This document shows positions 4,958 through 30,379 of a DNA stretch of 64,000 nucleotides, piece by piece. Source of the stretch: Turneriella sp. GTDB lineage: Bacteria > Spirochaetota > Leptospiria > Turneriellales > Turneriellaceae. Positions within the stretch are counted from its first letter, which is position 1. The number at the start of each line of letters is the position of its first letter. The notes beneath the pieces were generated by a model that saw nothing but the letters and a program-made list of their open reading frames with translations, did not search any database and was not told the origin of the DNA. The position numbers and the translations under genes were made by a program. Location: positions 384,001 through 448,000 of the forward strand of contig CBDIID010000003.1 in NCBI GenBank assembly GCA_965279515.1, written 5' to 3'.

Positions 4958-6997
4958 TCAGGTAAACTTTGTGGCACCGGCAGAAAGCAAGACATCCCGC
5001 AACTCTGCCAGTTCAAAGGGCTTTACCAGCATCCCATCCATGCCTGACGCTATCACCTGCTCCCTGATATCAGCCTGCGCGTTGGCGGTCAGCGCGACAA
5101 TGCGTGGTTGGCGGATTGCCCTGTCGGCCCTGATCGCCTTTGCGGCATCATAGCCGTCCAATTCCGGCATAAAAATATCCATGAAAATAAGATCATAACT
5201 TTTCTCCCGCGCCCTTGCCACCGCTTCAATCCCGTTCGGGGCAAAGTCTGTGGCATAACCGAAGGCGGCAAGGCTCGCTTCGGTCACAATCTGGTTGATT
5301 TCATTGTCTTCCGCGACCAGGATGTGGAGCGGATTTCTTCCAGCAAGGGTTGCATCCGGCCCGGACGGGGTTTGCGCCCCGGAGACCACTGCATGGGGAA
5401 CGACAAACTCGCTCTCAGCGACAACGGGAAAAGTCAGCGAGAAGAAAAAAACCGAACCCTTATCCGGCGTACTCTCGACCTTCAGCGCACCGCCCATCAG
5501 TAACAAAAGCTCTGAAGCGATTGGCAGCCCCAACCCGGTGCCGCCGTATTTGCGCGAAGTCGACTCATCCGCCTGCACATAGGCGCCGAAGATGCGCAAC
5601 AAGACATCCTGCGTCATACCGATGCCGGTGTCGTGGACGGCAAAATATACCGTGACGGTATTCTCCGTGCGCTGGGTTTCCCTGACCTCGAGATGGATTT
5701 CTCCCGCATGTGTAAACTTTGCCGCATTACTCAAAAGATTCGTCAGAATCTGGCGCAGGCGCAGGTTGTCGCCGACGAGCAGTTTCGGAATTCTCTCATC
5801 GAGACTTAGTCTCATTTCGAGATCCCGGGTATTCGAACTCGTAATGAGCTGGTAGGTTTCAACCACCAGCGCCTCCAGCGAAAAAGGCGCGTTTTCGATC
5901 TTCAGGTGCGCCGCCTCGATTTTTGAAAAATCGAGCACGTCGTTCAGGAGCTTCAGCAACACCTGCCCCGAATCCAGGATAATCCTTACCTGATGCGCCT
6001 GTTCCTTTTCGAGCCTGCTCCACTGGAACAGGCGGGCGATGCCGAGAATACCGTTCATCGGCGTGCGGATCTCATGCGTCATACGGGCGAGAAAACGTGA
6101 TTTAGCCTCGCCCGCTTCACCGAGCAATTTGCCGGAATGTTCACTGCGCACCAATTGCCGGTTTTGTAATGCCATGCCGAGAATCGTCAGCGCACTCGAA
6201 AAAACAAAAACCATGAGGCTGATGTTGGTGTCCGCAGGCTTTAGCGCGGCAAAGGGCCCCAGCCCCCGGGCCGTAGCGGCAATCACCGCAATCATGGATA
6301 AGGCACTCAAGGCCATAACCAGAAAGAGCTGTGCGTTAAAGGACAATAACAAAAGCAATGGCAAGACGGCATAAATCGCGCTGGGCAGGCGCGTCACACT
6401 GAGTACGAGAATGGCAATGAGCATCAGGCCGCAGATCACCAGCCAGCGCCAACTTCGGGCATCCATGGAGCGGTATTCGCGCCACCCCTGGTATAACGGA
6501 TAAACCAGGAGAATGCCGAGGCTGTCGGCCAGCGTCAGCTGTAGAAAAAAAGCCGGCAATTCATCCGGTACCAGGTAGTCCCCTGCCCAAAGCGAAGAGG
6601 TCAGCGCAATACTCGTCAGCGTCGTTGTTACCAGGCAAATCCAAAAACCAAAGGGCAACAGGTCGTGAACCGTAAGCAAGCCCTGCGGCAGGTAACGTTT
6701 CAGGAGTTTTGCCGCGACCAGGCCAGCACTGCCATCGACGAGGGCAACGCCCATGACGGGCCAGATTTTGATCACTGGCCCGCTATTCAATCCGGGAAAA
6801 TTCGCCGCAAAACTCGCGGCCACCACAAGCGGAAACACGCGGATGCCCCACGCGAGGTTCATGAGCAACGCCACGCCGGATGGTAGCCATAACAGGGTGA
6901 TGTTGCCGGGCTTCAGCGCAAAAACAGCCATGCCGAAGCGGGCCAGCAAATAATAGATGAATGCGGCAAACAGCGCCTTAGCTACGCTGCGCAGCAT
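4958..6997 (-). CDS. MASE1-domain hybrid sensor histidine kinase/response regulator
   Basis: Multi-TM N-terminus with 'LWLPSG'; H-box THEIRTPMNG; N/G boxes NAAKFT, DTGIG, GGTGLGL; receiver 'AEDN...MDIFMP...KP'. Confidence 0.9.
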   Translation of the reverse strand: MLRSVAKALFAAFIYYLLARFGMAVFALKPGNITLLWLPSGVALLMNLAWGIRVFPLVVAASFAANFPGLNSGPVIKIWPVMGVALVDGSAGLVAAKLLKRYLPQGLLTVHDLLPFGFWICLVTTTLTSIALTSSLWAGDYLVPDELPAFFLQLTLADSLGILLVYPLYQGWREYRSMDARSWRWLVICGLMLIAILVLSVTRLPSAIYAVLPLLLLLSFNAQLFLVMALSALSMIAVIAATARGLGPFAALKPADTNISLMVFVFSSALTILGMALQNRQLVRSEHSGKLLGEAGEAKSRFLARMTHEIRTPMNGILGIARLFQWSRLEKEQAHQVRIILDSGQVLLKLLNDVLDFSKIEAAHLKIENAPFSLEALVVETYQLITSSNTRDLEMRLSLDERIPKLLVGDNLRLRQILTNLLSNAAKFTHAGEIHLEVRETQRTENTVTVYFAVHDTGIGMTQDVLLRIFGAYVQADESTSRKYGGTGLGLPIASELLLLMGGALKVESTPDKGSVFFFSLTFPVVAESEFVVPHAVVSGAQTPSGPDATLAGRNPLHILVAEDNEINQIVTEASLAAFGYATDFAPNGIEAVARAREKSYDLIFMDIFMPELDGYDAAKAIRADRAIRQPRIVALTANAQADIREQVIASGMDGMLVKPFELAELRDVLLSAGATKFT

Positions 6998-13655: not shown

Positions 13656-14894
13656 TTATCCGAGACCGCCGCGCAGGCGTGTGGCGAGGGCAACACGTTC
13701 GACGGCGATGAGGAATGCCGCGGTGCGCAGGTCGGTTTTTCGCCCCTGCGCCAGTGCGACGACAGCGCGGCAGGCAGCGTTCATTTTCTGCTCCAGCGCG
13801 GTATTGACCTGCTCTTCGCTCCAGCCATAACGCTGCGCATTCTGCACCCATTCAAAATAAGAAACCGTGACGCCGCCGGCATTACAGAGTATGTCGGGAA
13901 TGATCGTGACGCCGCGCTGGCGCAGCAGCTGGTCTGCTTCAGGTGTCAAAGGATGGTTCGCAGCTTCGGCAATAAACCGGGCTTTGACGGCAGCGGCATT
14001 GCCGGCATGGATAACTCCGCCCAGCGCCGCCGGCACCAGCACATCGCATTCGAGGGCGAGAAGTTCGTCATTGCTGACCGGTTCGCCCGCGAATGCGGAT
14101 AACCCCCGTGCGCCGGTGGCATAAGCCTGCATGCCAGCAGCGATCTTCAAGCCATCTTTATGAAAGACGCCGCCTGTGGAATTGCTGACTGCAATGACAT
14201 GCCCGCCGAGCTCTGAAAGAATTTTCGCCATCCAGGCCGCGACATTGCCGAGGCCCTGTATGGCAAATGTTTTTCCATGGATGCCGCCGGCATTCAGGGA
14301 CGCCAGTATTTCGCGGATGGTAAAGACGGCACCCCGCCCGGTGGCGGCGTCGCGCCCGGGCGAGCCGCCGAGTTCCAGGGGTTTTCCCGTCACCACACCC
14401 GGAGCATAACCATGGAGCTTCTCATACTCATCGAGAAACCACGCCATCTCTGCGGCACCCGTGCCGACATCGGGAGCCGGTATATCGCGGTCAGGCCCGA
14501 CAATTTCATGGATGGAACGGACGAAGGCACGCATGAGCCGTTGTTTTTCCCGCGCGGACAGTGCCGCCGGGTTACAGGCGACTGCTCCCTTCGCACCGCC
14601 CAGGGGGATATCCACGACGGCGCATTTCCAGGTCATGAGCGAGGCGAGGCTGCGCACTTCGTCGAGATTGACATCGGGATGAAAACGAATACCGCCCTTG
14701 AAAGGGCCGCGCGAATTGTCGTGCTGAACACGGTATGCGGTAAAAACAGCGGGATCACCTTTGTCATTGGCAATCGCCAGTTTGACCTGTGTCTCGCGCA
14801 CCGGGATGCGCAGCCTCTGTTCGAGAATGGCGTCAAGGCCCGCCAGCGCAAAGGCGTTATCTAAAAAGAAATTGGTCTGCTCAAAGGGCGTCAA
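13656..14894 (-). CDS. gdhA: Glu/Leu/Phe/Val dehydrogenase (glutamate dehydrogenase)
   Basis: RGPFKGGIRF, MTWK, GGAKG, DIPAPD, VTGKP, NAGGVTVSYFEWVQN. Confidence 0.9.
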   Translation of the reverse strand: MTPFEQTNFFLDNAFALAGLDAILEQRLRIPVRETQVKLAIANDKGDPAVFTAYRVQHDNSRGPFKGGIRFHPDVNLDEVRSLASLMTWKCAVVDIPLGGAKGAVACNPAALSAREKQRLMRAFVRSIHEIVGPDRDIPAPDVGTGAAEMAWFLDEYEKLHGYAPGVVTGKPLELGGSPGRDAATGRGAVFTIREILASLNAGGIHGKTFAIQGLGNVAAWMAKILSELGGHVIAVSNSTGGVFHKDGLKIAAGMQAYATGARGLSAFAGEPVSNDELLALECDVLVPAALGGVIHAGNAAAVKARFIAEAANHPLTPEADQLLRQRGVTIIPDILCNAGGVTVSYFEWVQNAQRYGWSEEQVNTALEQKMNAACRAVVALAQGRKTDLRTAAFLIAVERVALATRLRGGLG

Positions 14895-14900
14895 TGGAGG

Positions 14901-15911
14901 TCAAATTACAAAATCCCCGTCAAACGTCTGCACATTGCGTATGCGGTAAAAAACCGCGAGCCCCAGGTTTAATCCCAGTGCCTTACCGGTTTCGTAGGGA
15001 ATCTCGGCTTCGACTACCTGCTGCGTCTTGTCGTCGATGAGCGTCACGCGTGTATAAGGCCCGAGCGGCTGCACGCCTTCGACCTTGGCGCTGAAGTCGG
15101 TCGGAAATTTTTGCACGATATCGACCTCGATTTCATGCGGCCGCACATAACCCTTTCCCTGGATACCTTCGATGCGGCCGTGGAACAGGTTGACATTGCC
15201 CATGAACTGGTAAACAAACGGCGTCTTCGGATTGCGGTAAACATCGTCGGGTGTACCGATCTGCTCGACCTGCCCGCGGTTCAGAATCACCACGCGGTCG
15301 GCGACTTCGAGCGCCTCTTCTTGATCATGCGTCACGAAGATACTCGTGATATGAATTTCATCGTGCAGCTTGCGCAGCCAGCGGCGCAGCTCTTTGCGCA
15401 CCTGTGCATCTAACGCACCAAAGGGTTCGTCGAGTAGCAGTACTTTAGGTTCTACGGCGAGCGCCCTCGCCAGCGCCACGCGCTGCCTTTGGCCGCCCGA
15501 CAGTTGGTGCGGATAGCGGTCTTCGAGATTCGCGAGCTGCACGAGGCCCAAAAGTTTCATCACGCGTTCGCGGATTTCTTCTTTGGAGGGGCGGAATTTT
15601 TTCTTGCGCACTTTGAGACCGAAGGCGACGTTATCAAAAATCGTCATGTGTTTGAAGAGCGCATAGTGCTGGAACACAAAGCCGACATTGCGTTCTTTCG
15701 CCGTCAGCGTCTGCACGTCGGTGCCGTCGAAGCGAATAATGCCGGATTCGGGAAATTCAAGACCTGCAATGATGCGCAAAAGCGTTGTCTTGCCGCAACC
15801 CGATGGCCCCAAGAGCGCCAAAAGCTCGCCGTGTCCCGCTTCGATCGAGACATTGTTCAGGGCTTTGAAATTCTTAAAGGTTTTACTGAGATTTTCTACT
15901 TGTATTTGCAT
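14901..15911 (-). CDS. cysA: Sulfate/thiosulfate ABC transporter ATP-binding protein
   Basis: [39 protein letters not shown]-like tail; follows cysW. Confidence 0.93.
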
Positions 15912-15931: not shown

Positions 15932-16019
15932 TTAAACCGCAAAGTACGCTGAGGTACGCTGAGTATTTGCGGCAAACGCTGTGCCTTTCTTTGCGTCACT
16001 CTGCGCCCTCTGCGGTTAA
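15932..16019. repeat. REP-like palindromic element overlapping the cysW stop codon
   Basis: ttaaaccgcaaag-tacgctgag-gtacgctgag ... ctttgcg-tcactctgcg-ccctctgcggttaa: imperfect inverted arms with internal tandem units. Confidence 0.7.
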
Positions 16020-16850
16020 TTTTTGTGACAGCTTTGCCTTGAGTTCAACCAGTGTTTTGACCATCAGCGTCGCGAGAGCCAGAAACGCCAAAAGCGACGC
16101 GACAGCAAACGCCGCCGTAAAATTATATTCATTGTAGAGGATTTCCACGTGCAGGGGCATGGTATTCGTTTCGCCGCGGATATGCCCCGAGACCACGGAG
16201 ACCGCGCCGAACTCACCCATCGCGCGCGCATTGCATAAAATTACGCCGTAAATGAGCCCCCATTTGATGTTAGGCAGGGTCACCATGAAAAACATCCGCA
16301 GCGGCGATGCGCCCAGCATCAGCGCCGCTTCTTCTTCACTCTTGCCCTGCTCTTCCATGAGCGGTATGAGTTCACGCGCCACAAAGGGAAATGTCACAAA
16401 GACGGTTGCGAGTACGATGCCCGGTATCGCAAAGATAATCTTGATACCGGCGCCAGAAAGTGCCCCGCCGAGCCAGCCCTGCAAACCGAAAATAAGCACA
16501 TAGATAAGCCCTGAAATCACCGGTGAAATCGCAAAGGGCAAATCGATGAGCGAGACGAGAAAACTCTTGCCCCAGAAATCAAATTTTGCCACGGCGTACG
16601 CGGCCACGACTCCAAACACGAGGTTCAGCGGCACCGAAATGCCCGCGGCAATCAATGTCAGTTTAATTGCCTCCCATGTTACCGGATCCGCGAGAGATTC
16701 GACATAATACCCCCAACCTTTGTTAAAAGCCTGTGTGAAAATTTCGTAAAGCGGCAAAACTAAAAGCAGCGTTAGAAATCCTACGGCGAAGCCGATGAAA
16801 GTAATTTTGAGCCAGAGTGGATCCTGAATTTGTGCGCTTGTCTTCTTCAT
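15996..16850 (-). CDS. cysW: Sulfate ABC transporter permease CysW
   Basis: DLPFAISPVISG, FPFVARELIP, EEEAA..LGA, ARAMGEFGAVSVVSG. Confidence 0.95.
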   Translation of the reverse strand: MKKTSAQIQDPLWLKITFIGFAVGFLTLLLVLPLYEIFTQAFNKGWGYYVESLADPVTWEAIKLTLIAAGISVPLNLVFGVVAAYAVAKFDFWGKSFLVSLIDLPFAISPVISGLIYVLIFGLQGWLGGALSGAGIKIIFAIPGIVLATVFVTFPFVARELIPLMEEQGKSEEEAALMLGASPLRMFFMVTLPNIKWGLIYGVILCNARAMGEFGAVSVVSGHIRGETNTMPLHVEILYNEYNFTAAFAVASLLAFLALATLMVKTLVELKAKLSQKLTAEGAE

Positions 16851-17671
16851 GTAACCTTTCTCTTCTGGCGTATCTGCAAATAGTTCAGGATGAGGAGCAG
16901 CGCAAAGGAAATCATCAGCATCACAGCCGCCACCGCCGTCGCGCCCTGCACATTGTGCTGCTCGAGTTTGGTGATGATGATGAGCGGCGTGATTTCACTT
17001 TTGAACGGAATATTGCCAGCAATAAAGATCACGCTGCCGTACTCACCCAGCGCGCGGGAGAACGCCATGATCGTACCTGAAAACAGCGCGGGTAATAGCG
17101 ATGGTAAGATGACGCGGGTGATCGTCTGCCAGCGCGTTGCTCCCAAACTCGCCGCAGCCTCTTCGACTTCTTTTTCAAAGTCTTCTAGCACGGGCTGTAC
17201 CGAACGCACGACGAAAGGCAGACCGATAAAAGTCAGTGCAATTGTGATGCCGATGGGGTTATAGGCGGCCTTGATGCCAGCCTTCATGAGTGGCGCGCCT
17301 AAAATACCGTTCTCTGCATAGACGGTGGAAAGCGCGATACCGGCAACGGCTGTCGGCAATGCGAACGGGAGATCGACTAATGTGTCGAGCAGGCGTTTGC
17401 CCCAAAAAGTATACCGCGTCAGCACCCAGGCTATCACGAAACCGGCAAAGAGGTTGATCATCGCCGCGATAAATGCCGTCAAAAAACTCAAACGTAAGGA
17501 GATGAGGGTACGTTCTGAAAAGGCATGCTCGGCAAAATCAGCCCAGCCCAAAGAAAAACTCTTCGCAAACATCGCACCGAGTGGAATTAATACAATAACG
17601 GCGAGATAAATTACCGTGTAGGTAGAGGTTATCTTAAAACCAGGTAGGATGGATTTTTCGCGGAAAGTCAA
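16847..17671 (-). CDS. cysT: Sulfate ABC transporter permease CysT (start re-called at TTG 17671)
   Basis: SILPGF N-terminus, DLPFALPTAVAG, EEAAASLGA, RALGEYGSVIFIAGN; the longer ORF start lies inside a repeat. Confidence 0.93.
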   Translation of the reverse strand: MTFREKSILPGFKITSTYTVIYLAVIVLIPLGAMFAKSFSLGWADFAEHAFSERTLISLRLSFLTAFIAAMINLFAGFVIAWVLTRYTFWGKRLLDTLVDLPFALPTAVAGIALSTVYAENGILGAPLMKAGIKAAYNPIGITIALTFIGLPFVVRSVQPVLEDFEKEVEEAAASLGATRWQTITRVILPSLLPALFSGTIMAFSRALGEYGSVIFIAGNIPFKSEITPLIIITKLEQHNVQGATAVAAVMLMISFALLLILNYLQIRQKRKVT

Positions 17672-17778
17672 ACCCCACCCCCTAACCCCCTCCCCATTAC
17701 ATGGAGAGGGGGAAAAAGAAGTTCCCCAAACCCCTCTCCACATCGTGGGGAGGGGTGGCCGTAGGCCGGGGTGGGGTT
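17671..17778. repeat. G/C-rich REP-like double-hairpin element filling the sbp-cysT gap
   Basis: Terminal IR aaccccacccc (17671-17681)/ggggtggggtt (17768-17778) enclosing two hairpins, cccctcccca..tggagagggg and cccctctcca..tggggagggg. Confidence 0.8.
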
Positions 17779-18811
17779 AGCGACGATAGACCTGATCAAA
17801 CAGCCCTCCGTCGGCAAAATGTTCTTTGTTCGCTTTATCCCAGCCGCCGAAGGTCGCATCGACCGTGACGAGCCGTACCGGCTTCACGTGCGCATAGTGT
17901 TTGGCGATATCGGTCTTGCGGGGACGGAAAAAATTCTTGCCGGCCAGATTTTGCCCTGCGTCGGAATACAGGTATTGCAGGTAGGCGGCGGCGATTTCCT
18001 GATTGCCTTTTTTAATAGCGTTGCCTTCCATGAGGGCGACGCTCGGTTCGGCGAGAATGCTGAGCGATGGAATAACAATTTCAAACTGCCCGCCCAACTC
18101 CTTTACCGCGAGGTAGGCTTCGTTTTCCCAGGCAATCAGCACATCGCCGAGTTTGCGCTGCGTGAAGGTTGTCGTCGCACCGCGGGCACCGGCATCCAGC
18201 ACGGCCACGTTCTTATATAAAGCACGCAGAAATTCTTTTCCACGCGCAGCCGCGCTGCCGCCATCTTCCGGGTGCCCCGGAACTCCGCGCGGCCCAGTGC
18301 CTCGTGCACCGTGGGCATACGCCGCGAGATGGTTCCAACGCGCACCGCCCGAGGTTTTCGGGTTGGGTGTAATCACTGAAACGCCGGCTTTTATGAGGTC
18401 ATCCCAATCCTTAATATTTTTAGGATTTCCCTTACGAACCAAAAATACGATCGTTGAGGTATAGGGCGCACTGTTATCGGGCAGCCTCTTCTGCCAGTCG
18501 CTGGGTGCAATCTTCGCTTCGCGCGCAATGGCGTCGATATCTGAAGAGAGCGCCAGCGTGACAACGTCGGCAGCCAGACCGTCGATCACGGAACGCGCCT
18601 GTTTGCCGCTGCCGCCATGCGACATATGGAAACGTACTTCGTCTTGCGGGTGAGTTGTTTTCCAGTGTTTGAGGAATGCTTCATTATACTCGCGGTAGAA
18701 TTCGCGCGTGGGATCATAAGAGACGTTCATGAGCTCGCGCGTCGCCTTTTTACCGCCGCAGGCAGTCAGGGCAGCGATGAACAGAATAAACTTTAACGGA
18801 CTTTTTTTCAT
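17777..18811 (-). CDS. sbp: Sulfate-binding protein, lipoprotein paralog (Sbp2)
   Basis: LTAC lipobox; [33 protein letters not shown]. Confidence 0.93.
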   Translation of the reverse strand: MKKSPLKFILFIAALTACGGKKATRELMNVSYDPTREFYREYNEAFLKHWKTTHPQDEVRFHMSHGGSGKQARSVIDGLAADVVTLALSSDIDAIAREAKIAPSDWQKRLPDNSAPYTSTIVFLVRKGNPKNIKDWDDLIKAGVSVITPNPKTSGGARWNHLAAYAHGARGTGPRGVPGHPEDGGSAAARGKEFLRALYKNVAVLDAGARGATTTFTQRKLGDVLIAWENEAYLAVKELGGQFEIVIPSLSILAEPSVALMEGNAIKKGNQEIAAAYLQYLYSDAGQNLAGKNFFRPRKTDIAKHYAHVKPVRLVTVDATFGGWDKANKEHFADGGLFDQVYRR

Positions 18812-18856
18812 TATAACGACCGACGAATTCGAGAATTCAGACACTCCGTCAATGAC

Positions 18857-19037: not shown

Positions 19038-20036
19038 CTATTTCCGGTAGATCTGGTCGAAGGTGCCCCCGTCGGCAAAGTGTGTTTTTGCCGCGTTTTT
19101 CCATCCACCGAAAACACCGTCTACCGTAATCAGTTTGAGGTTCTTGAAGTGGTTGAAACGCGCCGCCGCCTTGGGGTTACGCGGGCGGTAATAGTGTTTC
19201 GCCGCGATATTCTGCCCCTCGGGTGATTCGAGATAGTCGAGGTAAGCTTTCGCGATTTCGGCATTCCCCTTGCGGTTCGCATTGACATCCACTACAGATA
19301 CCGACGGTTCTGCGAGGATACTGAAGGACGGAATCACCACATCGTACTGATCAGGGCCGAGCTCCTTAATCGCGAGAAAGGCCTCGTTTTCCCAGGCGAT
19401 ATAGACGTCGCCAATCTTGCGCTGCGTGAAGGTCGTCGTCGCGCCGCGCGCACCGGTATCGAGCACGGCGACGTTTTTATAGATCGCCGTCACGAATTCC
19501 TTCGGATCCTTTTTTTTATCCAGCGCGTAACCCCATGCCGCCAGGTAATTCCACTGCGCGCCGCCCGAGGTTTTTGGGTTCGGGGTAATGACCGACACGC
19601 CGGGCTTGCCCAGGTCGTCCCAGTCCTTAATCCCCTTAGGATTTCCCTTACGCACTAGAAACACAATCGTCGACGTATAGGGTGCGCTGTTGTTTGGCCG
19701 GCGCTTCTGCCAGTCTTCAGGCAAAAGTTTTGCTTTCTCGGCGATCACGCTGACGTCGTTCGCCAGGGCGAGTGTCACCACATCGGCGTCGAGGCCGTCG
19801 ACAACCGAACGGGCTTGTTTGCCGCTACCGCCATGCGATTGCCGGAACTTAACGTTATCCTGCGGATGCGTCGCTTTCCAGTGGCGGGCAAACGCCGCAT
19901 TAAATTCTCGGTAAAGTTCGCGTGTCGGGTCATACGAGACATTGAGCAGCTCGTAGTCTTTCGCCGCAACCTCGCCGCCGACAAGGGCGGTCAGGATGGT
20001 GGCGAGGTAAATAATTTTCAGATTTTTCACTTTCAT
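19038..20036 (-). CDS. sbp: Sulfate-binding protein, periplasmic paralog (Sbp1); start ATG 20036 or GTG 20030
   Basis: Same Sbp motifs; signal peptide without Cys; AAGGAG upstream. Confidence 0.93.
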
Positions 20037-20056
20037 CTCCTTCAGTATATTGGCAA

Positions 20057-21649
20057 TCAATCAAAAAGCAGGGCGGAAAGCTCGAGATACGCGAAATGCG
20101 AATCACCCGGGCGTTTGAATTTTTCGGTGTAGGCCCCTGCCTTGAAATAGGCGTAACCGATATTCACCTTCAGGTGTGGGAACGGATAGCGAATACGAAT
20201 GTTGTACTCTTCACCGAATTTGCTGTCGGTGTTGGCGTTGCCCGCAGCTGTGGCATTGCTCAGGATGCCGGCATTGTTCCAGCGATCTTTCGGGCTCGCT
20301 GCCCAATACCAGACATAAGCAGTATCGATCTTGAGTTTTTCGATCGGTTCAAACTCGAGAATAACCTTCGGTGTTTCGAGGTTTTCTAACTGGAAATAGT
20401 CGTTCGCGGACCAGGGCCTCGCGAACCCATAAAGCCTTTCGAAGCGGTTCTGTGTATTGTCGGTACGGTCAAGGTCGCCTGAAATGAAGGCATAGAAACC
20501 AGCAAGGCGGGGTTTCCACGAATGCTTGAAGGTGTAACCGACTTCTGCCGTGGTATAAAATGCATCCTGTTTGCGTTCGACGGCGTTAGCACCCAGCTGG
20601 TCTACACCAAATTGTTTGGTATAAGAGAAGTCATAGTCAAAGCCGGATTTACCAAGCACGGCGTATACACGACCACCCACGGTATGAATGTCTCTGAACG
20701 AACGCGCACCAGCGTCGCTTGTGGGATACCAATCCAGCCTGGCCGGCTGATTATCCTGGTTAAGACCGAAATAGTAAGGCTGAATCGTCACCCATTGCGA
20801 CCATTCACGCACATTAAGCACCGCGCCATAAAACCACTGCTGGCCGATGGGTTGATCAATTTTCTCAATCTCGCGGATTAATGGTTGAGCGCCAATCAGG
20901 TTCAGATCCCAGTTGTTTTCTTTTTTTCCGATGGAGATCCAACCACCCTGAAAGGTGTTCGTCGTGTTGCGCCATTCGTTGAGACCCACGAGACGGCGAT
21001 CGGTCAGCTCGAGCGCATAACGCCCGCCGCGCACCGTGAGTGGGCGATTGTAGCCAAAAAAGTTTTTAAAGTGTAACTCGGCGTAGGCCTGAATGGGCTC
21101 TAAATAATTGAAATCCCGTGTATCCGCCGCAGTTGCGATCGGTGTGCGGCGCGAATCCTGTACTTCACCAACCAACCGAAACCAATCAAATTCGAGTTTT
21201 AGGAATGCCCGCGTCTTGAACAGTACAGGGGTTTCCTGTATTGCGGGGTTACCGGTTGGCCCTTGAGGATTTACAGGGCTATTCGCCCGACGAAAGTCGT
21301 TTTGACGAATTTCACCGCGGGTGCGCTGTTCGATACCAAAGATGATCCAGTCGATGTTCTTAAAGACACCGATACCGGTTTCACTGAGTCGCTTCGCGTA
21401 AGCGGGTTGCGTGCTATCGATGGGTTCTGTACCATAACTCGGTGAACGGACATAATAGCTGTCCTTTACTTCTGTGGTTGCTGCCTTTTTATCGGCTTCG
21501 CTGACTTCCGGTGGAATGGACTCGTCGTCTTTTACGGCTTTCTCTGCCGCTTCTGCTGGTTTTGCCTTCTTCGGCGCCGCAAATAACGGGCTTGCAAAGA
21601 CCGCTCCTGCGACAGCGAAGAAGAAAACTTTCTTAATAATCGTTTTCAT
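20057..21649 (-). CDS. Alginate-export-family outer-membrane beta-barrel (probable sulfate/anion porin)
   Basis: Signal peptide; 'QDSR', 'IQAY', '[16 protein letters not shown]', 'SGD......RFERLYG'; first gene of sbp-cysTWA run. Confidence 0.75.
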
Positions 21650-21663
21650 TTTTTATCTCCCTT

Positions 21664-21715
21664 TGCACACGAGGTGCATGGAATGCGGCGCACATGGATG
21701 TGCATTGCCGCATTC
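21664..21715 (-). promoter_or_regulatory. Two stem-loops immediately upstream of the porin RBS
   Basis: gaatgcggc-gcacat-gg-atgtgc-att-gccgcattc (21681-21715) and tgcac-acgag-gtgca (21664-21678); RBS GGGAG at 21657-21661. Confidence 0.55.
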
Positions 21716-21774
21716 TTAGTTTTAATCCCCGCTATCTAAACAAAACTTTGTTTCGCTTCAGATGCGCAGGGATA

Positions 21775-21939
21775 TCACCTTCTTATGTGCAGAAGGGGAT
21801 AGCCGCGGGCACCCTGGCAACAGGATGTTGCGGGGGCTGCGGCGCACCAGCGGCGTTTGGAACAAACGCCTGTGGTGCAAGCCGCGGCCTCGCGCGCGCG
21901 ACAACAGCAACAACAGGAGTTTTTCACGAAATTTTTCAT
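21775..21939 (-). CDS. Poly-cysteine leader peptide (54 aa), candidate Cys-sensing attenuator
   Basis: MKNFVKNSCCCCCRAREAAACTTGVCSKRRWCAAAPATSCCQGARGYPLLHIRR*: 10 Cys, five consecutive; lies between cysK and the sulfate-uptake genes. Confidence 0.65.
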   Translation of the reverse strand: MKNFVKNSCCCCCRAREAAACTTGVCSKRRWCAAAPATSCCQGARGYPLLHIRR

Positions 21940-21973
21940 AGTCAATGATTCGCTGTCAGAATCTCCGCCATGA

Positions 21974-22882
21974 TTAAAAGAGACCTTCGATCGAGAGATA
22001 ACGTTCACCCGTATCGTAGTTGAACGTGAGAATGCGCGCGCCTTTTTTGAGTTCGGGAAGTTTTTTCGCCACCGCGGCGAGCGACGCACCGCTGGAGATA
22101 CCACCGAAAAGCGCCTCTTCGCGCGCAGCGCGTTTGGCATATTCAAACGCTTCTTCTTTCGTGACCTGGATCACGCCGGTGAGAAGTTCTTTTTTCAGGT
22201 TCTTCGGGATAAAACCCGCGCCGATACCCTGGATTGGGTGCGGAGCCGGATTGCCGCCGGAAATTACCGGAGACGCTGCAGGTTCAACCGCATAGACTTC
22301 GAGATTAGGCCATTTTTCGCGTAGCGTTTGCGCGAGTGCCGTGATATGCCCGCCGGTACCGACGCCGGTGATGACGACATCTATACCTTCGGGGAAATCG
22401 CGGAGTACTTCTTGCGCGGTAAATTTAGTGTGCGCGGCGATATTGGCTTCGTTCTCGAACTGCTGTGGGATCCACGAGTTTGGGGTTTGCGCCGAAAGTT
22501 CGTTCGCGCGTTCGATCGCACCCTTCATGCCTTTTTCACGCGGCGTAAGATCGAATGTTGCCCCATATGCAGCCATAACTGCGCGGCGCTCGACCGACAT
22601 GCTCTCGGGCATAACAAGAATGAGTTTATATTTTTTCGCAGCGGCGACGAGGGCAAGGCCAATACCGGTGTTACCCGATGTCGGTTCGATGATGACACTG
22701 CCCGGCTTCAGTATACCGCGGCGTTCTGCGTCTTCGACCATCGATAACGCGATACGGTCTTTAATACTGCCGCCCGGATTCTGGCGTTCCAGTTTTACCC
22801 AAACTTCGGCGTCGCCGAACAGGTGCTTGATACGTAAATGCGGCGTATTGCCGATTGCTTCGAGAATGCTATGTATCTTCAT
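21974..22882 (-). CDS. cysK: Cysteine synthase A (start re-called at MKIHSI, 22882)
   Basis: [14 protein letters not shown] (PLP Lys), [31 protein letters not shown]. Confidence 0.96.
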
Positions 22883-22962
22883 AAATAACTCCTTAATTTG
22901 AATTAACCGGGTGTTTTTTCGAAGCCCCGGTGCTTCCGGGGCAATCCGGGAGTGCTCCCGAA

Positions 22963-23076
22963 TTATCCCTGAAGCGCCGAACAGCCAAGGAAACACGATG
23001 TGTCCGGGCCTGCGCAGCACGCAGAGATGCGACAGCAGCGTGACATTGAACTAAAATCTGCTATACCGAACGTCAT
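22963..23076 (-). CDS. Cys-rich leader peptide upstream of cysK (37 aa; 27 aa from ATG 23046)
   Basis: [37 protein letters not shown]: 6 Cys including two CC pairs; followed by two hairpins before the cysK RBS. Confidence 0.6.
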
Positions 23077-23085
23077 TCTGCGCGG

Positions 23086-23115
23086 AAGATACTCAGGCGA
23101 CCGACACTACGTCAA
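23086..23115 (-). promoter_or_regulatory. Candidate sigma70 promoter for leader-cysK
   Basis: TTGACG (23115-23110) - 18 nt - TATCTT (23091-23086), 9 nt before leader ATG. Confidence 0.5.
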
Positions 23116-23134
23116 CAAAAACAGACAAACATCC

Positions 23135-23752
23135 ATGAAAACGAACAAGAAAAAAAAGCCCGAACCTCCCGCTCCGGCGACCAGCGGAGAAAACCTCACA
23201 GGGGTAGTCGCAGAAAACGTTAAACGACTGCGCAGTGACATGGATTTATCGCTCGATAAACTCGCAGGACTCTCCGGTGTTTCAAAAGCAATGCTGAGCC
23301 AGATCGAACAGGCTCGCAGCGCCCCCTCGATCAATGTGCTCTGGAAGATTGCCCGTGCGCTCGATGTGCCTTTTGCGGCACTAATCTCAAAGCGCACGGA
23401 TTCCCAGCTGCAGGTTGTGCGCAAAAGTGAAATGAAAGTGCTTTCATCACAGAAGGGAAATTTCCAGTCGAAGGCCCTGTTTCCGCTCGACATAGCCCGG
23501 CGCGTTGAATTCTACGAACTGCTGCTCAAGGCTGGCTGCGTCGAGCGCGCTGTGCCCCACCCCGCCGGTACGGCAGAGAATATCGTTGTGTCTGAGGGCG
23601 AGCTGGAGATTGAAATCGGCGGACAGAGAACTTTATTAAAAGAGGGCGACTCCATTTACTTCGTGGCCGACGTGCCGCATATTTACCGCAGCATCGGATC
23701 CAAAGACACACGCGCCTATCTCGTGATGACATACGCAGAAAAGCGCGTGTAA
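23135..23752 (+). CDS. XRE-family HTH + cupin transcriptional regulator (SutR/PuuR-like)
   Basis: 'LSLDKLAGLSGVSKAMLSQIE...PSINVLWKIA' and cupin 'H...E...V..G...GDSIYF.ADVPH.Y'; start re-called at 23135. Confidence 0.9.
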   Translation: MKTNKKKKPEPPAPATSGENLTGVVAENVKRLRSDMDLSLDKLAGLSGVSKAMLSQIEQARSAPSINVLWKIARALDVPFAALISKRTDSQLQVVRKSEMKVLSSQKGNFQSKALFPLDIARRVEFYELLLKAGCVERAVPHPAGTAENIVVSEGELEIEIGGQRTLLKEGDSIYFVADVPHIYRSIGSKDTRAYLVMTYAEKRV

Positions 23753-23801
23753 GCAATTTTCTGTTCAGCCGGTCTCTTTGCCCGTATTCACCGCTCACTA
23801 A

Positions 23802-25130
<1,329 letters not shown>

Positions 25131-25183: not shown

Positions 25184-25594
25184 TCAGCTGGCGCGCTTCT
25201 CTTCTAACCACGCATAGACGTAAGTTCCCAGGAAGATACCCAGCACAATAAACGCGCCTGAGTGGAGTCCATAACCCAGAATTGCGAGCGCGGGGCCGGG
25301 GCATGCGCCTGTTAAGGCCCAGCCTGCTCCCGAAATCAGTCCACCAACCACGTGATTTTTGGACAGTTTCTCCACATTCCACTCGGTTTCGCCGCCCAAA
25401 AGCGGCTGGCGCCTGAGTTTTTTCCAGAGCTGTACGCCGATAAACGAAACCGGCACGGCAACGCCCAGAACTCCGTACATATGCCATGACTTGAGAAGAA
25501 ACATGTCGCGGATCACATCATAACTCGACACGCCTGCGCGGATGAGTATGTAGCCGAACGCAGTACCCAGCACCAGGAAAACAATGCGCAACAT
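25184..25594 (-). CDS. YeeE/YedE-family sulfur-transport protein (small, C-half type)
   Basis: 'GGLISGAGWALTGACPGP'. Confidence 0.85.
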   Translation of the reverse strand: MLRIVFLVLGTAFGYILIRAGVSSYDVIRDMFLLKSWHMYGVLGVAVPVSFIGVQLWKKLRRQPLLGGETEWNVEKLSKNHVVGGLISGAGWALTGACPGPALAILGYGLHSGAFIVLGIFLGTYVYAWLEEKRAS

Positions 25595-26092
25595 CTATTT
25601 TACTCCCGAGATGAATGAAATGAGAATGGTGACAATCACACCCGCCACGAGAAAACCTCCCGTCGCTACAAAACTTGCCAGCGAGCCCTTCGAAAGACCT
25701 GCAATGGAATTACCTGATGTACAACCCTTTGCAAGCCTTGCGCCATAACCCCAGAGAAATCCCCCTGTGATCAGCACAGCTGCCTTCACACCAAGACTTG
25801 TCCCCCAAATATCATTGAACCGGCCAAGGTCCCATGTCGGATGCCATCCCGTTGTGGTTAAAGCGGCGATAGCGCCACCAGCCACTAACCCGACTGTAAA
25901 GAATGTACGAAAACCGAAGGCGCCGCCGAGATCGGGCCTGGAAAAATATTTGAGGCGCGAAAAAATTCCGCAGACCGTGGCATAACCGCGGGTCACCGAG
26001 AGAAATTTTCCTGTGGATATAACTAATAAAATCGAAACTGTGGCAATGGCAAGTCCACCCAACCAAAACGGCCAAATATATGCAGAGGTCAT
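25595..26092 (-). CDS. YeeE/YedE-family sulfur-transport protein (small, N-half type)
   Basis: 'GGFLWGYGARLAKGCTSGNSIAG'; start re-called at MTSAYIW. Confidence 0.85.
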   Translation of the reverse strand: MTSAYIWPFWLGGLAIATVSILLVISTGKFLSVTRGYATVCGIFSRLKYFSRPDLGGAFGFRTFFTVGLVAGGAIAALTTTGWHPTWDLGRFNDIWGTSLGVKAAVLITGGFLWGYGARLAKGCTSGNSIAGLSKGSLASFVATGGFLVAGVIVTILISFISGVK

Positions 26093-26155
26093 GGGGGCAA
26101 CCTCCCGGAGGTTGCTCACGAGCGTAAAGTCAAACAGCTGTCGCACGCCCGGGGG

Positions 26156-29342: not shown

Positions 29343-30379
29343 AAAGCGGGATTATCTCAGTGTTTCTGCAGATCGACGCGGAAAGCCTGCGTCTGCCGGC
29401 TTTTGACGCTGCTTCCCTGAAATATCTTGTCTATTTTCTGCTATTCATTATCATCGGCCTGGTGTTTTTCCAATGGCGTTTGCGCAGAAGCCACGAAAAG
29501 AACGCCCTCTCCAACCGGTTCATGCAGATTTTGATGCGCCGGGCATTGACGCGTACACAACAGGCTGCAATGCAGGATTTCTTCGACCGGTTGCACGAAG
29601 TCGAACAAAATGAAATCATGATTTCACAGAAATCGCTGGAGCATCACCTGCACCAGTACCTCGAACGCCATCCGGAAATTTCCGCGGCAGACCGCGTCGA
29701 GATCTTTGATAAACTACTCGCAGGTAAAGCCCCGCAAATTGAAATCAAAACGGTTTCCGACCTGCGCATCGGCGAACTCTGCGCTCTCGATGCCGGCAAA
29801 ACGTCATGGCTCACGACGATCATGAAATCCAAAGATGACCAGATTCTGCTCACGTCTTACGAGAAGACACCGATTCCCGTCGGTGGCGGGCATGTCTATG
29901 CTTACCGGGCAGGGCTCGGCGGATTTCTGCTCTCCGGCCAAATCATCAAAGTGAAGGAAAACTCCCTCATATTTAAACACAACGGCCATGTGGATTTCCG
30001 TGGAGATCAGCACCTGATGTCGACAGTGTCTGTTGCCGTGAAAATCGAGCGCTGGCCGCATCCCGAACTCGGTATCGATGAAGAGAAGCCGCTGGAATCC
30101 GCAGGGGTTGAAGTCTTTACCGGGCTCAGTGATAAGATTTCAGACCGCGCATTGGCTGTACGTTTTACGCCCGGGCCGCCCGATTGGATACTTTCGCGCC
30201 AGGATTTTTGGGAAATGACCCTCGACCTGCCCGAAAAGCCCCTGATATGCCGGGTCAAAGCCACACGTTACCAGAAAACCGATATGCACTTTTTACGCCC
30301 CATCGACATGGATGGCGCCGAACGCAACCGCTTATACACCTTCATTGCCGCCCACAACCCTGTGCGCGAGCACTTCTAG
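29339..30379 (+). CDS. Membrane-anchored hypothetical protein, possibly degenerate YcgR/PilZ-like
   Basis: N-terminal TM, two beta-rich domains, 'DKISDRAL' resembles the PilZ DxSxxG position. Confidence 0.5.
   Translation: MKSGIISVFLQIDAESLRLPAFDAASLKYLVYFLLFIIIGLVFFQWRLRRSHEKNALSNRFMQILMRRALTRTQQAAMQDFFDRLHEVEQNEIMISQKSLEHHLHQYLERHPEISAADRVEIFDKLLAGKAPQIEIKTVSDLRIGELCALDAGKTSWLTTIMKSKDDQILLTSYEKTPIPVGGGHVYAYRAGLGGFLLSGQIIKVKENSLIFKHNGHVDFRGDQHLMSTVSVAVKIERWPHPELGIDEEKPLESAGVEVFTGLSDKISDRALAVRFTPGPPDWILSRQDFWEMTLDLPEKPLICRVKATRYQKTDMHFLRPIDMDGAERNRLYTFIAAHNPVREHF

Follow-up and report, generated by a model that had tools for sequence, protein, structure and literature searches.

In this free-living spirochete, sulfate import at low cysteine is most likely activated by a ribosome on a cysteine-rich open reading frame acting together with an RNA switch. 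The reading frame lies in a stretch of 64,000 nucleotides from Turneriella sp. (contig CBDIID010000003.1, positions 384,001 to 448,000; hereafter the window), between cysK and the genes for a porin, two sulfate-binding proteins (sbp) and CysTWA. The open reading frame, its enrichment in Cys codons, the conservation of that enrichment and a conserved RNA core are established at the level of the sequence, and together they very probably represent a cis-acting cysteine-sensing leader that is found across the genus. As for its output, we lean towards translation, a reading drawn from folding models in which the leader would control initiation at the porin start through a relay of four RNA arms, with polarity onto the sulfate-import genes.

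Results

Operon context of the leaders

All features described here lie on the minus strand of the window unless stated otherwise. A consensus scan places a promoter-like site for the cysK-porin-sbp-sbp-cysTWA unit at 23086-23115 (-35 element 23115-23110, -10 element 23091-23086), and a TTGAC hexamer is found about 28-33 nt 5' of the start codon in every promoter-proximal leader compared. The first element behind the promoter is a Cys leader that was absent from an earlier, sequence-only reading of the window and that we designate type A (22963-23076; 37 codons, 6 Cys, two CC pairs). It is near-leaderless, has no Shine-Dalgarno (SD) sequence, carries by folding a GC-rich 3:4 hairpin without a U tract at 22924-22942 and precedes cysK, the gene for cysteine synthase A (21974-22882; TIGR01139 above cut-off). 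An imperfect palindrome at 23056-23071 is the probable operator of a divergent regulator with an XRE-family HTH and a cupin domain (23135-23752, plus strand; PF01381 and PF07883), whose cluster members are named XRE-family regulator and which presumably resembles E. coli SutR. A one-pattern scan found a similar palindrome at the promoter, which it overlaps or follows, in 10 of 20 loci, and the conserved palindrome recurs before sbp in some genomes.

The second leader, which we designate type B (21775-21939), follows cysK and is itself followed by an outer-membrane porin of the Alginate_exp family (20057-21649; PF13372), the first gene proposed to be regulated. Two sulfate ABC substrate-binding proteins (19038-20060 and 17777-18844; TIGR00971 and PRK10752), cysT (16847-17743; TIGR02139), cysW (15996-16850; TIGR02140) and the sulfate ABC ATPase gene cysA (14901-15911; TIGR00968) complete the unit, all with profile matches above cut-off, and the Pfam, TIGR and PRK matches bear out the gene identities that had been read from the translations. 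A frame for a Glu/Leu/Phe/Val dehydrogenase (13656-14894) starts a few bases past the cysA stop and possibly belongs to the same transcript as the sulfate genes. On the other side, an OAH/OAS sulfhydrylase (23835-25130, plus strand) stands behind the XRE-cupin regulator, and two small Sulf_transp membrane proteins of the YeeE/YedE type (25184-25594 and 25595-26146) converge on it, so that the sulfur cluster extends beyond the leaders, the porin and the sulfate genes. A further promoter-like match (21959-21931) overlaps the start of the type B leader, and an RNA from it would begin inside the reading frame.

Cysteine codons of the type B leader

The type B leader has 54 codons, of which 10 encode Cys (translation checked), and its ATG stands 34 nt past the cysK stop. 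Five consecutive Cys codons at 21915-21901, four TGT and one TGC, are what we regard as its main sensor. These properties agree with the sequence-only reading, as does its remark that the list of open reading frames holds the leader only as the tail of a longer one; the latter is a 123-codon TTG frame (21775-22146) that overlaps cysK out of frame and was taken as incidental. In a six-frame translation of the genome (9,797,060 codons), 37 runs of four Cys, one of five and one of six were counted; the only run of five is that of the leader, and the run of six has no in-frame upstream ATG. The leader ranks first, both for the density of its Cys cluster and for Cys number, among 4330 intergenic short ORFs before same-strand genes, as delimited by crude gene calls made for this analysis. 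The peptide has no Pfam match and an exact-sequence search found neither of the window's two leaders in the protein collection; such leaders mark short ORFs that are missing from it.

Across the nine type B loci (the window, G001, G003, G005, G006, G007, G012, L117 and L120), Cys accounts for 61 of 458 codons (13%), against 24 of 458 (5%) in each other forward (+) frame and 0.8% in long genes. TGT provides 29 of the 39 codons in the leader Cys runs, compared with 29% of Cys codons in genes. The genome has one tRNA-Cys, with anticodon GCA (only 39 tRNA genes were called), and RNA pairing might add to the TGT bias. The run of the window is the longest of the nine, and its frame is intact between the conserved start and stop codons. 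The peptides range from 27 to 66 residues and vary in sequence, length and Cys spacing, with no conserved CXXC, and between closest relatives (G003 and L120, G005 and L117) the frame is shifted after the Cys run. This freedom, together with the frameshifts, favours a sensor that acts in cis over a functional peptide, and the peptide itself is probably irrelevant.

Type B leaders start at the cysK stop or within about 40 nt of it. The start overlaps the stop in G003 and L120, and a nine-codon mini-ORF (21942-21971 in the window) spans the gap in the window, G001 and G006, from which we infer that leader translation is coupled to that of cysK; judged by its position, the mini-ORF is possibly a re-initiation relay between the two.

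Conservation within and beyond the genus

Porin orthologues were searched in 41 genomes, and a strong one was found in 10, nine in Turneriella and one in another genus of the family. All nine in the genus have a Cys-run leader upstream, six of type B after the cysK stop (the window, G001, G003, G005, G007 and G012) and three of type A directly behind the promoter (G002, G009 and G011), whereas no such leader lies upstream of the orthologue in the other genus (G014). A Cys run is present in the leader at 9/9 loci of the genus, despite otherwise dissimilar peptides. In G006, whose contig does not reach the porin, cysK is likewise followed by a type B leader, and G001 and G006 share with the window the type A leader before cysK. 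A metagenome scan gave 21 loci, of which four without upstream DNA were dropped and 17 were read; leaders are present in all three close loci (L117 and L120 type B, L118 type A before the porin) and in two of the 14 distant ones. The genomes compared are kin, so that none of these counts represents independent trials.

No leader was seen at sbp in G004 and G008, members of the genus in which the locus passes straight to sbp, in the three Leptospira porin records, or behind the promoter of cysK in seven genomes of family f8, taken as Leptospiraceae (one of them covered only in part); no convincing leader was found at 14 cysH/cysD loci or upstream of the second cysK of the window's genome. Of 141 genomes of the class scanned with a covariance model of the RNA core described below, seven, all from the genus, contain a single strong copy each, and G010 gives a weak match. 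The idea of a Cys regulon spread over the genome through such leaders was rejected, since the core occurs once per genome and no convincing leader precedes cysH/cysD or the second cysK. A CCC frame at C3:612707 was set aside because it precedes a lipoprotein-like gene. On contig C1 (38 kb) of the genome, a set of short frames and the gene downstream of them are found in two copies (6107-6247 and 29582-29722), pointing to a duplicated segment or a repeat in the assembly.

Other designs occur outside the genus. Two genomes from other genera of the family, G016 and G017, have leaders before cysK whose Cys runs, of six Cys in G016, extend right up to the stop codon, and in G016 (L073) a leader with a terminal Cys run also precedes a porin remnant. 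In a high-GC non-spirochete lineage (L128:2065-2210, L134 and L151, the last entitled Thermodesulfobacteriota bacterium MAG), a 28-codon near-leaderless ORF with four Cys in a row stands about 180-270 nt before the start of a porin of the same family; behind this ORF comes a textbook intrinsic terminator, complete with U tract. We consider this arrangement a candidate for a classical Cys transcription attenuator; in L134 and L151, a ribosome placed on the Cys run is predicted to allow antiterminator pairing, with a weak contrast to other positions. The unrelated type A and type B designs before the same porin in one genus, together with the designs of the other genera and of the distant high-GC lineage, indicate repeated independent invention.

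A conserved RNA core at the leader stop codon

The RNA of the type B region (21630-21975) is strongly structured (z = -8.6 against 100 shuffles). Alignment of the nine type B loci revealed a common core of 49 nt at the leader stop (21811-21763), which forms a single long hairpin, the 2:3 hairpin, of -17 to -23 kcal/mol in the seven loci folded. In this hairpin 90.1% of 171 cells pair, compared with 34-61% in slid controls, two pairs are changed on both sides and the covariation score was reached by none of 500 shuffles, although the structure was derived from the same sequences and their relatedness inflates the result. The core comprises arm 2 (21803-21811), a pyrimidine-rich anti-SD segment B (21787-21802), an SD-like decoy C that spans the leader stop codon (21773-21783) and arm 3 (21763-21772); the stop codon lies 22-34 nt into the core in eight of the nine loci, and the core of the window is intact, with a score of 69.8 bits in the covariance model.

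Each of the outer arms has an alternative partner. Arm 3 can pair with arm 4 (21725-21733), which is present in all nine loci and gives a 3:4 duplex of -12 to -22 kcal/mol; arm 4 is followed in the window by A-rich sequence and in none of the nine loci by a U tract, so that 3:4 is not an intrinsic terminator, and no terminator-like match was found on the coding strand behind the window leader. Arm 2 pairs upstream in naked nascent RNA in five of seven loci, in the window with region 1 (21831-21843). Segment B likewise has two possible partners, decoy C across the stop codon or the porin ribosome-binding region E (21654-21668), its predicted partner in the OFF fold. Cognate B:E duplexes have a mean of -11.0, against -9.2 for non-cognate ones (permutation p 0.01, among kin that are not independent), and in the window and G012 the two partners change together; the B:E duplex is weak, at -5 to -8, in four of the nine loci, and the 3:4 duplex displays no cognate preference (p 0.23). 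The spacers between leader stop and porin ATG measure 47-125 nt, with at least as much G as C in 9/9 loci. In five of the nine loci the last Cys codon is inside arm 2, where the window has Arg, and in G005, G007 and G012 the Cys codons themselves are within stems. The type A leaders are laid out in a parallel fashion: their stop codon falls in arm 2, and their GC hairpin lacks a U tract. An extra 33-nt hairpin (21714-21682) between arm 4 and the porin SD is shared, among the nine loci, with G001 only, with changes that keep the pairing. An Rfam search of 21500-23900 gave no family at gathering score and five chance-level matches, none of them near it.

The sequence-only reading had placed the switch further upstream, in a strong stem with a 35-nt span (21844-21878) and a small gcaaca hairpin (21817-21831) that carries the second CC pair. 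Both stems do form in the predicted fold of the window, but the large one is absent from its two closest relatives, and the conserved switch is located 3' of both, at 21811-21725 together with the porin ribosome-binding site. The pairing between the gcaaca arm and the Cys run that it had envisaged has a probability of 0.18 transiently and of 0.0 after the local hairpin is complete. Its central proposal, a Cys-sensing leader that switches on porin-sbp-sbp-cysTWA, gains from the leaders at the nine porin orthologues and from the conserved core at the stop codon, while the structural detail has had to be redrawn. The porin SD of the window is predicted to pair with B near the 3' end of the leader, not with the Cys tract; for G001 and G006 the predicted SD pairing is at the first Cys codons or next to them.

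Folding models of the proposed switch

When the nascent RNA was folded with a ribosome on the leader, the probability of 2:3 was higher with the ribosome on Cys-run codons than on other leader codons in eight of the nine loci, with the same outcome for two footprint settings; G001 displayed no contrast. Of the five codons in the Cys run of the window, just the final two or three increase 2:3 (0.52-0.74, compared with 0.20 in the free RNA), and for a ribosome at the stop codon the value is zero by construction, because the footprint covers the hairpin there. According to these models the 1:2, 2:3 and 3:4 hairpins would be mutually exclusive and set by the position of the ribosome. Holding 2:3 reduces the cost of opening the porin start in seven of the nine loci (for the window, 10.8 falls to 2.6 kcal/mol), and in the other two the stalled ribosome directly covers the anti-SD at or near the Cys codons, where it lowers the cost from 7.2 to 0.6-1.3 (G006) and from 4.6 to 0.2 (G007).

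At equilibrium, with the full-length RNA and a single ribosome on the Cys codons of the window, the porin SD stays paired (unpaired 0.0-0.2), and the opening cost is 7.3 for the free RNA and 4.0-11.3 with the ribosome in place. Relative to the relaxed module, the 2:3 state loses 4-17 kcal/mol in stability, the 17 kcal/mol of the window being the largest gap; as the ON state is less stable than the relaxed fold, it has to be a kinetic trap. Compared with 150 ordinary genes, the occlusion of the porin start is exceptional in three of the nine loci only, and that of the window is at the median. For most type A leaders, moving the ribosome has little effect on the opening cost of the downstream start.

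Discussion

Proposed mechanism

In light of these data, we propose that ribosomes leaving cysK would re-initiate on the type B leader. Scarcity of charged tRNA-Cys would stall them in the Cys run, where they would keep region 1 off arm 2, and the long 2:3 hairpin would form on the nascent RNA, locking the anti-SD B onto decoy C and leaving the porin start accessible (ON). If cysteine is plentiful, the ribosome would reach the stop codon and, since this codon is inside the 2:3 hairpin, would block it there; arm 3 would pair with arm 4, and after release of the ribosome B would pair with the porin ribosome-binding site (OFF). Rho polarity would carry the effect on porin translation to the downstream sulfate genes. 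The lack of a U tract after 3:4 makes control of porin translation with polarity the likeliest output. The promoter-proximal leader, of similar layout, would act in the same operon before cysK, and the XRE-cupin repressor probably acts on the promoter.

A more tentative extension, which we regard as possible rather than likely, is that the gating is double: the near-leaderless leader would control cysK, and the cysK ribosomes would then be handed to the intercistronic four-arm leader, working as a kinetically set switch. Sulfate uptake would in that case need both cysK translation and a stall at the Cys codons, a cascaded AND gate made of ribosomes and RNA only.

Alternative explanations

The main rival retains the sensor and the 1:2/2:3/3:4 switch and makes Rho-dependent premature termination the direct output, with 2:3 hiding B as a possible Rho loading site and 3:4 serving as a pause hairpin. 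It is a serious one, since Rho is encoded in the genome and U-tract terminators are scarce: a strong hairpin with at least five T was found at only 30 of the 805 gene ends examined, and 99 of 167 strong hairpins are followed by two T or fewer. Both leader types carry a conserved GC hairpin without a U tract, type A with little SD switching, and there are precedents, as uORF-controlled Rho termination is documented in the accessible part of a review (PMC12360218) and Rho is proposed for actinobacterial Cys leaders in the accessible part of PMC1262725. However, the RNA from leader stop to porin ATG is short and structured, with C not above G in 9/9 loci, B measures only about 16 nt, and B:E pairing has coordinated changes in the window and G012; the 3' half of the leader is mildly C-rich (34 C and 24 G in 91 nt) but structured, and the stop-to-ATG spacers are not C-rich. 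On balance we consider a direct Rho output somewhat unlikely, and translational control of the porin preferable.

The leader could also be a genuine Cys sensor of the genus of which the copy in the window works otherwise or poorly, through ribosome queues or RNA cleavage, or because it is mostly stuck in the OFF state after acquiring the extra hairpin and a stronger B:E pairing. The largest gap between the relaxed and 2:3 states (17 kcal/mol), the missing Cys codon that ends the series in five of the nine loci and the lack of equilibrium opening of the porin SD are all consistent with such a copy, but the longest Cys run of the nine, the intact frame and the intact core (69.8 bits) make it unlikely. 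It is very unlikely that the Cys codons arise incidentally from the TGT/TGC-rich stems of an untranslated structured RNA (a riboswitch, a protein-binding site or a stabiliser): the strong structure (z -8.6), the Cys codons in stems of G005, G007 and G012 and the lack of a good SD right before the leader ATG of the window would fit, but it is only in the frame with a start codon, and with its stop inside the core, that Cys is enriched (13% against 5%), in-frame Cys runs precede cysteine or sulfate genes in the unrelated type A and type B leaders and in two other genera, and no Rfam family reached its gathering score. Least credible of all is a peptide that itself has the function or does the sensing, as a small Cys-rich protein that resembles metallothionein or senses copper (CruR/CutF type), for which one may cite the 10 Cys in 54 residues and the metal-sensing uORFs with Cys in the part of PMC12360218 at hand, but which is contradicted by the lack of a Pfam match, the unconserved sequence, length, Cys spacing and CXXC, the frameshifts in G003 and G005, and downstream genes that import sulfate.

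If the translational reading of a cis-acting sensor is true, ribosome-based cysteine sensing would be extended to spirochetes and to sulfate import, and the leader would offer a compact test case of the classical four-arm attenuator layout without a terminator.

Comparison with known systems

In a search of largely open-access literature, main texts only, neither a Cys leader in spirochetes nor an amino-acid leader attenuator in the phylum was found, in agreement with the sequence-only reading, which knew of no such description; the accessible part of PMC2965389 contains nothing on cysteine or spirochetes. Unlike metal-sensing Cys uORFs and metallothionein-like peptides, the leaders have no conserved CXXC-type motif and no metal-related target genes. 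With the uORF-controlled Rho-dependent attenuators mgtL/mgtA and corL/corA of Salmonella and cruR, as presented in the accessible part of the review (PMC12360218), they share a leader translation that is proposed to refold the RNA before a transporter gene without an intrinsic terminator, but the proposed signal is cysteine rather than Mg2+ or copper, and a Rho loading site is here only possible.

Among predicted Cys leaders, uORFC-8-2 before cysS in Rhodobacterales, to judge from part of PMC8632094, shares with ours the run of cognate codons. The actinobacterial leaders, according to part of PMC1262725, resemble ours in having Cys runs before cys operons and no obvious terminator; there the Cys runs adjoin the stop codon, no hairpins are conserved and Rho has been proposed. 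The leaders of G016 and G017, with their Cys runs at the stop, resemble this actinobacterial layout, whereas the type B leader does not.

With the trpL, hisL and thrL attenuators the type B leader shares a run of cognate codons and mutually exclusive 1:2, 2:3 and 3:4 hairpins, seen here in folding models and conservation, but its 3:4 hairpin is without a U tract in 9/9 loci, its targets are importers and the element is intercistronic. In signal and probable output the type B leader is akin to the mycobacterial attenuators, polycysteine leaderless sORFs (Ms5788A, the 'Cys ribulon') in which, in the part of the preprint available (bioRxiv 10.1101/834739), the Cys tract pairs with the SD of the next gene. 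As far as that part goes, both systems place a short ORF with consecutive Cys codons before cysteine or sulfur genes, and both dispense with an intrinsic terminator in favour of SD control of the next gene and polar effects, which are modelled here. The type B leader differs from the mycobacterial leaderless first ORF in being intercistronic, behind cysK, and from the Cys tract:SD pairing in that its Cys run is near the 5' end and would act on the SD by way of a relay of four arms in which the anti-SD and the decoy are separate elements; on the same partial source, the type A leader of the window is closer to the mycobacterial layout than type B. The general principle of Cys-codon leaders has already been published, and what is new here is the lineage and the layout.
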